A stretch of DNA of 64,000 nt from a virus: IMG/VR virus record IMGVR_UViG_3300037336_000025, positions 122,313-186,312 of that record; one strand, given 5' to 3'. The notes below the pieces were generated by a model, which saw only the letters and a program-made list of their open reading frames with translations, made no database searches and was not told where the DNA came from. Numbering within the stretch: the stretch's first letter is position 1; the number at the start of each line of letters is the position of its first letter. Made by a program: the position numbers and the translations under genes. Shown in pieces: positions 3,172 through 18,487 of this stretch.

Positions 3172-3720
3172 TTATACAGTAGCGTTAGCCACAGCCTCCT
3201 TAGTTAACCACACTCTTTTACCATCTATAACTTTCCAAGTTTTTCCAGTATAGTGCTGTGCTTTTAAATGTGCTTCTCGTTTTTTTTGTTTATTTTCTTC
3301 GGAACAGATTTTTCCTTTCATAGGCCCGCCATCTTTCCTTTTCCATCCGCTATCTCTTCCTTCTAATCTTCTCTGTAAATGAGCAGCTTTTTGAGCATCA
3401 CTCATCCGTTGTTTACTCTCTTCAGAATGTAGCTTGTTGCCGCCTGCTTGTCGAATATTAAACCCATTGTTAATAGAATCGTATTGATTCACATATTTTT
3501 CCTCTAACAAGTTTAATTCTTCCAACGATTTCGCTTCTGCAATAACTTCAAATATAAATGATTCTGATCCGTATTTTTTTAAAGCATTGTGAAAGTGATA
3601 TGTTCTTGGAGTATTCCTACTATCGGCAATATGTTCAAGCCGACGCCGATTTGGATTTTGTATAGTTTGCCCTATATACGCTCTTCCGCTTTCGGTATGT
3701 ATAAATTTATAGATATACAT
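3172..3720 (-). CDS. GIY-YIG homing endonuclease (Seg-like, NUMOD3-type C-terminus)
   Basis: MYIYKF...AYIGQT, conserved R, E and N (GFN), then HSEESKQRMS repeat; inserted between gp14 and gp15. Confidence 0.85.
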   Translation of the reverse strand: MYIYKFIHTESGRAYIGQTIQNPNRRRLEHIADSRNTPRTYHFHNALKKYGSESFIFEVIAEAKSLEELNLLEEKYVNQYDSINNGFNIRQAGGNKLHSEESKQRMSDAQKAAHLQRRLEGRDSGWKRKDGGPMKGKICSEENKQKKREAHLKAQHYTGKTWKVIDGKRVWLTKEAVANATV

Positions 3721-4985
3721 TATACATCCGCCTGTGGTCTAAGCGCCTTGCTAAGGCTTTGTTTCTCTTCAACAGTATGCCCGTCGATGACTGCTGTATT
3801 TGTATTGTTAATAAATGTACCTTTCTGTGTTTGACGAACATCTTTACCTTCAAATGTATCGCCAACTCCAGTATCGCTAGCACCTAGATTGTTCATAGTC
3901 ATACGCTGTATATCTTCCATCTTAACCCATCTTGTTCCGTTGAACCTAAACAGTCTGTTAGGCATGTAATCTTTTCTTAGGCAATACTGTCCGTCTACGC
4001 CTGACAGTGGAAATGCAATGCCAGCAGTAAACGGCGCACCGTTTGAAGGAATGCCATCTCCTGTTAGGTAACCTTGGTAGCCATTGCCCTTGGCAGTTTG
4101 TAACATTGTGCTGGCTGTTGGCCCAACATATATTGGGTCGTTGTTGGCATCAAACAACAAGTTGCCATCAGCATCAGTGGCCTGGGTTTGCAAGCTAGCA
4201 TCAATAGTTTCATTGTCAACAGTTACGAGATCAGCATTTCCGTTTTCATCCAGTTGAACAGTCCAGAATTTAGTAGTATCGTATCCGCTCTTAGGAGCAT
4301 CTGCTTCTGCTTGGTTAAGAACTGCTTGGGTAATCTGCATTTCTTTTTCATACGTAGACATAATGTCACGTAAGGTAGTGGTAGTATCGTTACCATCTCC
4401 GTCAGCGAGACCGTTGAGAATGTCTTTAAATTCTTGACTGTCTACTAGTGGTTTACATTTAGCACGATATAGGTGCGGATACCAAGTTACTGAATATCCT
4501 TCCGCTGCACGATTGACTTCCTCAACAACGTAAAAACGTTTTAGAGCAAACTGCAAATCGTTAAGTGCATACTCGTCTTTTAAGTGCGGTAGCTCAATTA
4601 CATCGCCCGACATAATTTTACGTCCAAGTTTTTCGACAGTATCGTTAATATGAAACGTCATGAATACTGTGTCATTTTGTAGAAATAGACCAAACTGACT
4701 TAGGTTAAAGTCAATGTCTTGAATATTATAAACACCTCGCAGCCTATATATATCCGGATCATACTTGCGATCTCTATTTTCTAAGAATAGTAAATCTTGT
4801 ATTTGTAAAGGATTGTCTGTGGTATATGCAGGAGTTGTCGGAGTAACTTCACTGCTAGAACCAGGTCCTATATACTTGTGAACAAGTACATCGACTCCGC
4901 CGACTTGGAACATTTCCCAAACGGTTTTATCGATGAATTTAAAATCATTGCCCTTTTGGGCGCGGTAGAGGCTTAATCTTGGCAT
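3720..4985 (-). CDS. gp14: Neck / head-completion protein (T4 gp14-like)
   Basis: Start MPRLSLYR at 4985, 4 nt after TAAATA. Contains DLLFLENRDRKY, LSQFGLFL and MSGDVIELPHL. Sits beside gp13 and gp15. Confidence 0.65.
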   Translation of the reverse strand: MPRLSLYRAQKGNDFKFIDKTVWEMFQVGGVDVLVHKYIGPGSSSEVTPTTPAYTTDNPLQIQDLLFLENRDRKYDPDIYRLRGVYNIQDIDFNLSQFGLFLQNDTVFMTFHINDTVEKLGRKIMSGDVIELPHLKDEYALNDLQFALKRFYVVEEVNRAAEGYSVTWYPHLYRAKCKPLVDSQEFKDILNGLADGDGNDTTTTLRDIMSTYEKEMQITQAVLNQAEADAPKSGYDTTKFWTVQLDENGNADLVTVDNETIDASLQTQATDADGNLLFDANNDPIYVGPTASTMLQTAKGNGYQGYLTGDGIPSNGAPFTAGIAFPLSGVDGQYCLRKDYMPNRLFRFNGTRWVKMEDIQRMTMNNLGASDTGVGDTFEGKDVRQTQKGTFINNTNTAVIDGHTVEEKQSLSKALRPQADV

Positions 4986-15556: not shown

Positions 15557-16195
15557 ATGGCAAAATCACTAGACGGTAATTTAATTAAGAAAGCACATGC
15601 TCCGATCCGATACACGTTAGAGGAAGTTAAGCATCTTGAAGCATGTATGCATCCGGTAGACGGTCCGTTATACTTCTGTAAAAACTTTTTAAAGATTCAA
15701 CATCCTGTACGTGGATCGATTAAGTTTGAACCGTATGAATACCAAGAGAGGCTAATACAGTCATACCACAACTACAAACAGTCTATTGGTATGCTGCCTC
15801 GTCAGATGGGTAAGACTACTTGCGCTACGGGATATTTACTATGGTACACAATGTTTGTGCCAGAAGCACAAGTATTAATTGCTGCTCATAAGTACGAAGG
15901 TGCGCAGGATATTATGAATCGTTACCGATTCGGTTATGAGAACTTGCCCGACTTTATTCGTGCAGGTGTATACAGCTACAACAGAAACACAATTGAATAC
16001 GACAACGGCGCACGTATTCAAGCAACTACTACAACAGAAAACACTGGTCGTGGTAAGTCTCTATCTCTAATTTATTGCCTAGATGGAGACACTACTACGG
16101 TTCGAGTTCGAAGTAAATTAACATTAGTTGAAGAGGATATAACGTTGACTGCGCTGTATGCTAGGCTAAACAGCAATGCTAAAATTATCGAATGA
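15557..16195 (+). CDS. terL: Terminase large subunit, N-terminal part fused to split-intein N-fragment
   Basis: Q-motif (EPYEYQ), Walker A-like PRQMGKT, then GRGKSLSLIY followed by the intein start CLDGDT and a stop. Confidence 0.92.
   Translation: MAKSLDGNLIKKAHAPIRYTLEEVKHLEACMHPVDGPLYFCKNFLKIQHPVRGSIKFEPYEYQERLIQSYHNYKQSIGMLPRQMGKTTCATGYLLWYTMFVPEAQVLIAAHKYEGAQDIMNRYRFGYENLPDFIRAGVYSYNRNTIEYDNGARIQATTTTENTGRGKSLSLIYCLDGDTTTVRVRSKLTLVEEDITLTALYARLNSNAKIIE
16076..16195 (+). other. Split intein N-fragment (IntN, 39 aa)
   Basis: CLDGDTTTVRVRSKLTLVEEDITLTALYARLNSNAKIIE*: intein block A (C-L-x-G-D-T) and the I..LY..L helix. Confidence 0.88.
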
Positions 16196-16221
16196 CGAGT
16201 TCGCATTTGTATAAATACTGT

Positions 16222-18487
<2,266 letters not shown>

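Follow-up and report, generated by a model that had tools for sequence, protein, structure and literature searches.

The gene for the terminase large subunit (terL) in the 64,000-nucleotide stretch of viral DNA analysed here (the window) does not occur in one piece. Two ORFs, each carrying one half of a split intein, together make up the contiguous TerL of intein-less relatives, and a free-standing endonuclease gene lies between them. Directly behind the first intein half stands a second, recoded version of the codons with which the second part of TerL begins. What is this copy, and why does the locus keep it?

The fractured terminase gene

All features described below lie on the + strand. The upstream ORF (15557-16195) begins with the TerL N-extein (15557-16075), 173 amino acids ending in ...GRGKSLSLIY that comprise the Walker A side of the ATPase and match Pfam Terminase_6N (E 3.7e-8). 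It continues into IntN (16076-16195), a 39-residue half reading CLDGD...LYARLNSNAKIIE (...AKIIE), which is conserved in 50+ related loci and terminates at a TGA (16193-16195). The endonuclease gene (16222-17106) encodes 294 amino acids, with an N-terminal domain of ~140 residues common to its family and an HNH-like C-terminal part (HHIDH...N...N). Its 3′ end overlaps by 23 nt with the downstream ORF (17084-18487), which opens with IntC (17084-17419; 112 amino acids, block B TATDDH, ending SHQ) and runs on into the live site TGT GAT GAG TTT GCG TTC GTG (17420-17440), encoding Cys+1 and the Walker B residues DEFAFV. This is the start of the C-extein (17420-18487), the nuclease or RNaseH-like part of the protein, which matches the PHROG 36964 terminase large subunit (E 2.6e-82). 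In ~80 viral contigs an intein-less terL, 90-100% identical in its N-part, reads on past SLSLIY without a break; the intein is thus inserted within the Walker B motif.

The intein belongs, from its sequence, to the atypical TerL class: IntC matches the consensus engineered intein CatC (PDB 6dsl_B; E 5.6e-5 over residues 6-114), C1 is present in CLDGD, block B reads TATDDH and a Cys stands at +1 in SHQ|C. IntC has 191 homologues. In the window it ends in His-Gln rather than His-Asn before Cys+1 (17411-17422), an ending that is invariant in the IntC of the same type (type A) in six relatives; a second type (type B) ends in Lys-Asn. Some relatives carry further inteins in the same terL (L082 and L083, at about 1200-1949 and 3225-3974; L085, L086 and L089; and the downstream parts of L111 and L154), namely a LAGLIDADG-type intein upstream in the N-part and, in the C-part, a second split intein that lacks an endonuclease gene.

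A recoded copy of the Walker B codons

The copy comprises 17 bases (16194-16210) between IntN and the endonuclease gene and overlaps both the IntN stop, whose GA supplies its first two bases, and a TATAAATA box (16210-16217). In the +1 frame relative to IntN, positions 16191-16214 read AAT GAC GAG TTC GCA TTT GTA TAA, that is N-DEFAFV-stop, with the recoded element itself running from the second of these codons to the TAA (16194-16214) and the TAA belonging to TATAAATA. The original prediction had described just this, a +1-frame DEFAFV over the IntN stop that differs from the live site (17420-17440) at the third base of five of the six codons, and both statements were borne out. All 17 bases fit the degenerate coding pattern for Walker B, and 12 of 17 match the window's own live site (13 of 18 with the sixth wobble base).

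Chance can be ruled out as the source of this match. With one mismatch allowed, the degenerate 17-mer GAYGARTTYGCNTTYGT occurs exactly twice in the window, at the copy and at the live site, against 0.02 occurrences expected from shuffling, and none of 100 shuffles gave two or more. A 24-mer made up of the copy and TATAAATA was found in 26 stretches among 2.9 million viral contigs (IMG/VR). In every distinct context listed an endonuclease start follows, at one locus ~33 nt further on, and in all but one (L237) a recognisable TerL IntN lies upstream. Upstream, towards the N-extein side, the LIY codons and the KII codons of the IntN tail have only ATT in common; we make no claim that the copy extends in this direction, because the IntN tail varies synonymously in the IntN frame. 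No matching right half-site (QPP codons) was seen 3′ of the endonuclease gene.

Selection on untranslated codons

Related loci were gathered by three routes, through similarity to the TerL N-part, the endonuclease and IntC, and gave 55 distinct IntN-end junctions, 37 of which retain the copy at 15 or more of 17 matches. These are not a random sample, although they were collected by protein similarity, not by the copy. Changes per site were counted by the Fitch method on a tree built from the flanks with a total length of 10.6 substitutions per site. At the 12 non-wobble bases of the copy we find 0.83 changes per site, as against 5.2-5.5 at first and 3.1-3.5 at second positions of the flanking IntN and endonuclease codons. 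The five wobble bases of the copy's ghost codons, the codons that it would have in the DEFAFV frame, change at 6.4 per site compared with 9.4-10 at real third positions. Pairwise identity at ghost positions 1, 2 and 3 is 0.92, 0.97 and 0.66. Among the 32 minority states found at the four two-fold ghost sites, 31 are transitions, so that Y or R is kept, and at the four-fold Ala site A, G, C and T all occur; at genuine four-fold sites of the flanking genes transversions prevail, 82 to 40 transitions. Purifying selection acts more strongly on the copy than on the coding DNA to either side. It is also old: an endonuclease lineage at 33% identity (L229/L230) has the still recognisable GAA AAG TTC ACA TTT GTT directly before TATAAATA.

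Two departures from the pattern may be recorded here. At position 4 of the copy a G-to-A change has recurred (four events by parsimony; L107, L122, L123, L125, L184, L197, L206 and L111), turning ghost Glu into Lys. The live Walker B motif could not carry the resulting DKFAFV, and the change may tune binding or prevent cutting. In L160 the copy reads DEFGFV (GGG), which is the natural live Walker B variant of L145; even this rare non-wobble change thus falls within natural target variation.

The original prediction called for homologous terL-IntN loci to be collected and the frame of DEFAFV recorded. Among the 37 junctions the copy is in the +1 frame with a TGA overlap in 28, in frame and translated in three (L098, L135 and L160), in frame but behind a TAA in two (L114 and L198) and at +2 behind a TAA in four (L142, L148, L158 and L154). 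The copy is, in general, not translated, or only rarely, and its conservation is independent of translation. Several other coding explanations fall away. A conserved mini-ORF in the ghost frame can be rejected, with stops one or two codons upstream in many loci and the start codon absent, as can an N-terminal extension of the endonuclease from an ATG at 16192, whose frame is stopped in L084, L085, L086 and L087. Nor can an antisense ORF (16072-16275) have caused the pattern, since in it the ghost wobble bases would occupy first positions of codons.

The copy and the endonuclease gene

If it is not translated, what does the copy go with? Each of the 34 junctions that match at 16 or 17 of the 17 bases has an intact endonuclease of 290-320 amino acids with the N-domain at its N-terminus, beginning immediately after the box, a co-occurrence that is partly plain linkage because the copy physically adjoins the N-domain coding region; 29 of the 34 carry TATAAATA exactly. 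Where the endonuclease gene has been lost or truncated, the copy has decayed (L100, L103, L111, L143, L144 and L146), and in other cases of loss it is absent (L092, L096, L128, L161, L162 and L172). In L129 and L156 an N-terminally extended endonuclease starts on the IntN stop, and here there is neither a separate box nor a copy. The copy is strictly linked to the endonuclease gene with its putative promoter.

A few loci (L101, 2947-3042; also L102 and L181-L183) have a contiguous intein derived by loss of the endonuclease gene from a split locus resembling L085. The L101 junction keeps ...GAGTGAC of the copy together with a perfect palindrome of 12+1+12 nt (AAATTATTGAGT C ACTCAATAATTT), which brings the sequence back into frame and looks like the product of hairpin-type break repair. 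The contiguous inteins of these five loci reflect secondary loss of the endonuclease gene and are not ancestral.

The endonuclease itself matches PHROG 5104 and 23051, and a relative matches PHROG 559 ‘HNH endonuclease’ (E 7.7e-4). In its AlphaFold model (pLDDT 89.8), residues 157-238 weakly match the HNH endonucleases 5h0o_A (Z 3.9) and 4h9d_A (Z 3.5); Pfam searches with the endonucleases gave nothing above threshold. For the N-domain, Foldseek against pdb and a wide structure search returned only weak coiled-coil-like rows (best Z 4.0), and a sub-threshold ROS/MucR match in one relative is the sole hint of DNA binding. The 186-kb record holds no second copy of the gene. One viral-contig scan, through which the contexts of distant N-domain proteins were sampled, found four loci, all in terL.

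The N-terminal ~140 residues are found joined to C-terminal nuclease modules of at least three unrelated kinds. Between the window (16623-17419) and L001 (5067-5885), the nuclease module and the whole of IntC have been exchanged for unrelated sequences; homology is retained in IntN, the copy, the N-domain (79% nucleotide identity), the C-extein (72%) and the N-extein. The right boundary of the exchanged block is exactly the splice junction and the IntC of L001 is of type B (...ITKN), so one IntN type pairs with two very different IntC types. Retention of the N-domain while the nuclease module is swapped is what would be expected, from these sequences, of a target-recognition module. The family has other arrangements too. 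Three of the four proteins P0241, P0227, P0268 and P0212 are in-frame fusions of the endonuclease with IntC-TerL-C. The nuclease module in these fusions is of a third type (...DLVIP...EF.G..FH...) that to the eye resembles PD-(D/E)XK/Vsr, and in one 474-amino acid protein three stretches match the N-domain and a CP-containing module of ~40 residues is repeated three times.

A putative operator for the endonuclease gene

For a sequence that tolerates just the silent variants without being translated, the only reader that we could conceive of is a protein adapted to the natural alleles of the coding sequence, which points to the homing endonuclease. Promiscuity at exactly the wobble positions of a coding target is known for homing endonucleases, as in I-AniI (PMC3943268). 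A precedent for the position of the copy comes from I-TevI, whose operator shares 15 of 20 bases with the homing site and overlaps a late promoter (Edgell et al. 2004, reviewed in PMC2988022); it is bound as strongly as the homing site and cut ~100-fold less (PMC2988022).

By analogy with I-TevI, the copy is on balance probably a mimic of the homing site that serves as an operator for the endonuclease's own gene. It would be a cis-regulatory DNA site of the endonuclease cassette, mimicking the C-extein half of the homing site in intein-less terL. The conserved N-terminal domain would recognise Walker-B-coding DNA, as needed to cut the intein-less terL of co-infecting phages. It would bind the copy too, with the differing upstream bases allowing binding without efficient cutting, and the bound endonuclease would occlude the promoter and so limit its own synthesis. 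We infer each of these steps, the targeting of Walker B DNA, the binding to the copy and the resulting repression. Several points speak against it: the recurrent change to DKFAFV departs from any real target, the fold searches with the N-domain were uninformative, and the box is neither enriched in the window nor spaced from the ATG in the usual way. The suggestion in the original prediction that the tail might act as a decoy comes close to this operator; the alternative offered beside it, an IntN cap that relatives would read in frame, is not supported, with three of the 37 distinct junctions translating the copy and six placing it behind a TAA.

How the copy came to be where it is

The copy may also preserve the footprint of a founding event, in which the endonuclease gene entered a terL intein with, or via, an ectopic copy of its own extein target that was later co-opted as an operator. 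We regard this history as unlikely, though worth keeping in mind; it would, with the same reserve, explain why the split falls ~30-39 residues in rather than at the usual site of the endonuclease domain. The original prediction suggested that a promoter-HNH-IntC-CDEFAFV cassette arrived and so gave rise to the split, a route that the loci gathered here speak neither for nor against. The nuclease module and IntC block that ends exactly at the splice junction and has been swapped between close relatives loosely fits such a cassette. An intein-less intermediate of the form N-extein-CDEFAFV-stop-endonuclease was absent from all the 24-mer matches, and no sign of conversion or recent re-copying between copy and live site was found, same-genome pairs being no more alike at silent sites than random pairs.

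It is unlikely that the copy serves as a cis-acting DNA substrate for mobility, being nicked or cut by the endonuclease, or annealing in the donor genome to the cleaved end of a recipient; the proposed outcomes, that this launches or anchors copying of the endonuclease gene or drives recombination at the boundary, we consider just as improbable. The conservation pattern implies recognition by the endonuclease equally well here, and some HNH enzymes, I-HmuI for example, nick occupied and empty alleles alike. The left deletion boundaries of four independent losses (L101, L161, L162 and L172) lie within the first 4-8 bases of the copy, and the 25-nt perfect palindrome at L101 is of a kind that hairpin-type break repair typically leaves. 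The same boundaries would, however, result if selection acted to retain the IntN stop codon. Priming of a recipient end on the copy would leave terL without its IntN, a dead product, 17-20 bases that include silent mismatches make a short substrate for recombination, and no sign of conversion between copy and live site is seen within single genomes (2.50 vs 2.57 +/- 0.15 wobble matches).

The putative promoter box and a predicted RNA hairpin

The TATAAATA box has the T4-type late-promoter consensus and is a putative promoter, lying over the last bases of the copy and 4 nt before the endonuclease ATG. Its pairwise identity across the 37 junctions is 0.97 and its overlap with the copy is one or two bases. 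The window shows no enrichment for TATAAATA (six found, 4.9 expected), and five of the six boxes lie 4-48 nt upstream of a same-strand ORF start. In the window (16210-16224) and the 37 related junctions the ATG follows just 4-5 nt behind TATAAATA, and there is no Shine-Dalgarno sequence. With this spacing a late transcript of the T4 type would either lack a leader or have its first base within the ATG, which makes the role of the box uncertain. In the distant L229 lineage 19 nt separate box and start, and a AGAGGTGG ribosome-binding site is present. The copy is not a general promoter UP-element of the phage, because the 17-mer occurs nowhere else in the window beyond the live site.

Might the copy act as RNA? 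A hairpin is predicted at 16193-16241, with the copy as its 5′ arm and box and start codon inside. On this account the copy would hide the endonuclease start in read-through terL transcripts, so that only transcripts begun at the box are translated, as for I-TevI and Aeh1 mobE; such a role could coexist with an operator. The window sequence is predicted to fold in this way (-10.6 kcal/mol) and close relatives reach -13 to -21 kcal/mol, with z-scores down to -4.0. For fractured genes, Dassa et al. (2009; PMC2677866) reported hairpins bearing TATAAATA in 15 of the 16 endonuclease leaders. In the window, however, z is just -1.78 and 16 of 200 shuffles fold as well. The hairpin is confined to the ‘TKL’ endonuclease subclade, about half of the 37 junctions (endonuclease N-termini MNKIEQF, MNKKIEQ and MDIKIQ) do not show it, with z near 0, and RNAalifold gives no consensus (-0.7 kcal/mol). 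The copy is equally conserved in lineages without the fold, and a stem would not account for changes that are synonymous only. The hairpin may contribute a further layer but cannot be what keeps the copy conserved; that the copy is essentially such an element, or that control of translation by it is the reason for the copy, strikes us as improbable.

Much weaker is the case for a translated tail, in which a +1 shift at a leaky TGA-C/T stop would extend IntN by DEFAFV, and this tail would serve the TerL N-fragment as a folding aid or as a cap that mimics the extein. Stops of the form TGA-C are weak, the prfB shift site being an example. Synonymous-only variation is what a translated peptide would show, and L098, L135 and L160, which read the copy in frame, tell us that a DEFAFV tail is tolerated. 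Against this, the copy is perfect (L114, L198, L142, L148 and L158) or nearly so (L154) in the six junctions that have a TAA before it, in two different frames. Five frame or stop arrangements are seen among the 37 junctions, which does not fit programmed frameshifting or stop bypass, and the codon before the TGA is neither conserved nor slippery (GAA, AGT, GAG, GTG, ACA...). Between L135, which reads in frame, and its relative L147 the tail differs by a 1-nt indel, whose direction is taken from the majority arrangement. The copy also decays on loss of the endonuclease gene although IntN stays. GOS-TerL IntN works when cut from 37 to 27 amino acids (PMC11766414), and by analogy the last ~10 residues of IntN here are probably dispensable for splicing. 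We consider a translated tail very improbable.

A neutral fossil of the founding insertion, devoid of present function, can be set aside almost completely: in its favour, the copied extein start does border the inserted cassette, but the non-wobble bases change 4-6x slower than the neighbours' non-synonymous positions over a tree length of 10.6, and the copy decays after loss of the endonuclease gene. The original prediction was right, then, that the endonuclease cassette carries a copy of the C-extein start, one half of the presumed intein-less homing site, but its reading of the copy as a fossil is not supported.

Relation to known systems

Fractured terminase genes with an atypical split are already known, as is the operator principle for T4 intron endonucleases. 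Dassa et al. (2009; PMC2677866) described a fractured terminase with an unusually long C-part from Lake Gatun. Its fractured genes share with the window the order of N-extein and IntN, endonuclease gene, and IntC and C-extein; the terminase there likewise has an atypical split and a long C-part (122 amino acids, 112 here), TATAAATA lies near the endonuclease start, and the 3′ end of the endonuclease gene overlaps IntC (by 6-69 nt, 23 nt here). The available text of that paper reports hairpins and two leader motifs but describes no copy of an extein target, and the terminase locus is absent from its hairpin examples. AceL-TerL, GOS-TerL and Cat-TerL (PDB 6dsl; PMC11766414) share the type of insertion point in TerL, a short IntN (25-37 amino acids, 39 here) and a long IntC (104-115, 112 here); the studies of them deal with the proteins and, in the available text, do not take up the DNA that separates the two halves, and the IntC here ends in Gln, not in Asn.

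A close parallel is the operator of I-TevI in the td intron of phage T4, where a homing-site look-alike lies over a TATAAATA-type promoter just upstream of the endonuclease ORF, as the copy may do here in a T4-related phage, and where a hairpin hiding the start may coexist with it. I-TevI is, however, a GIY-YIG enzyme encoded inside a group I intron; here a modular HNH-type enzyme with an N-terminal recognition domain is encoded by a free-standing gene that splits an intein. The mimic here, moreover, copies protein-coding DNA, keeps the codon-phase pattern and supplies the IntN stop, and its operator role is putative. I-TevII and I-TevIII have putative operators (PMC2988022).

An endonuclease-gene invasion model for mobile introns was reportedly put forward by Loizos, Tillier and Belfort in 1994. 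Here too sequence beside the endonuclease ORF within a self-splicing element resembles the exon or extein homing site; that model explains origin, whereas the resemblance found here is kept by selection. No pre-invasion intein carrying such a site was found among the related loci gathered here. A search of the available literature found no report of a fractured gene whose free-standing endonuclease has a copy of its homing site at its promoter.

Implications

If the copy is an operator, self-repression in the style of I-TevI would extend from intron-encoded GIY-YIG endonucleases to a free-standing, modular HNH-type enzyme, and to one whose gene fractures an essential phage gene via a split intein. 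The recognition sequence T GAY GAR TTY GCN TTY GT, including the bases that it tolerates, would then have been predicted from comparative genomics alone. Untranslated DNA that varies like coding DNA would be a searchable signature, able to locate the targets of uncharacterised homing endonucleases. For those who use TerL split inteins, the related loci offer natural variants with and without an extra IntN tail. Were the copy in addition the footprint of a founding event, it would be sequence-level evidence for the making of a natural split intein, and conserved ghost codons near endonuclease promoters would allow homing sites to be read directly from genomes.
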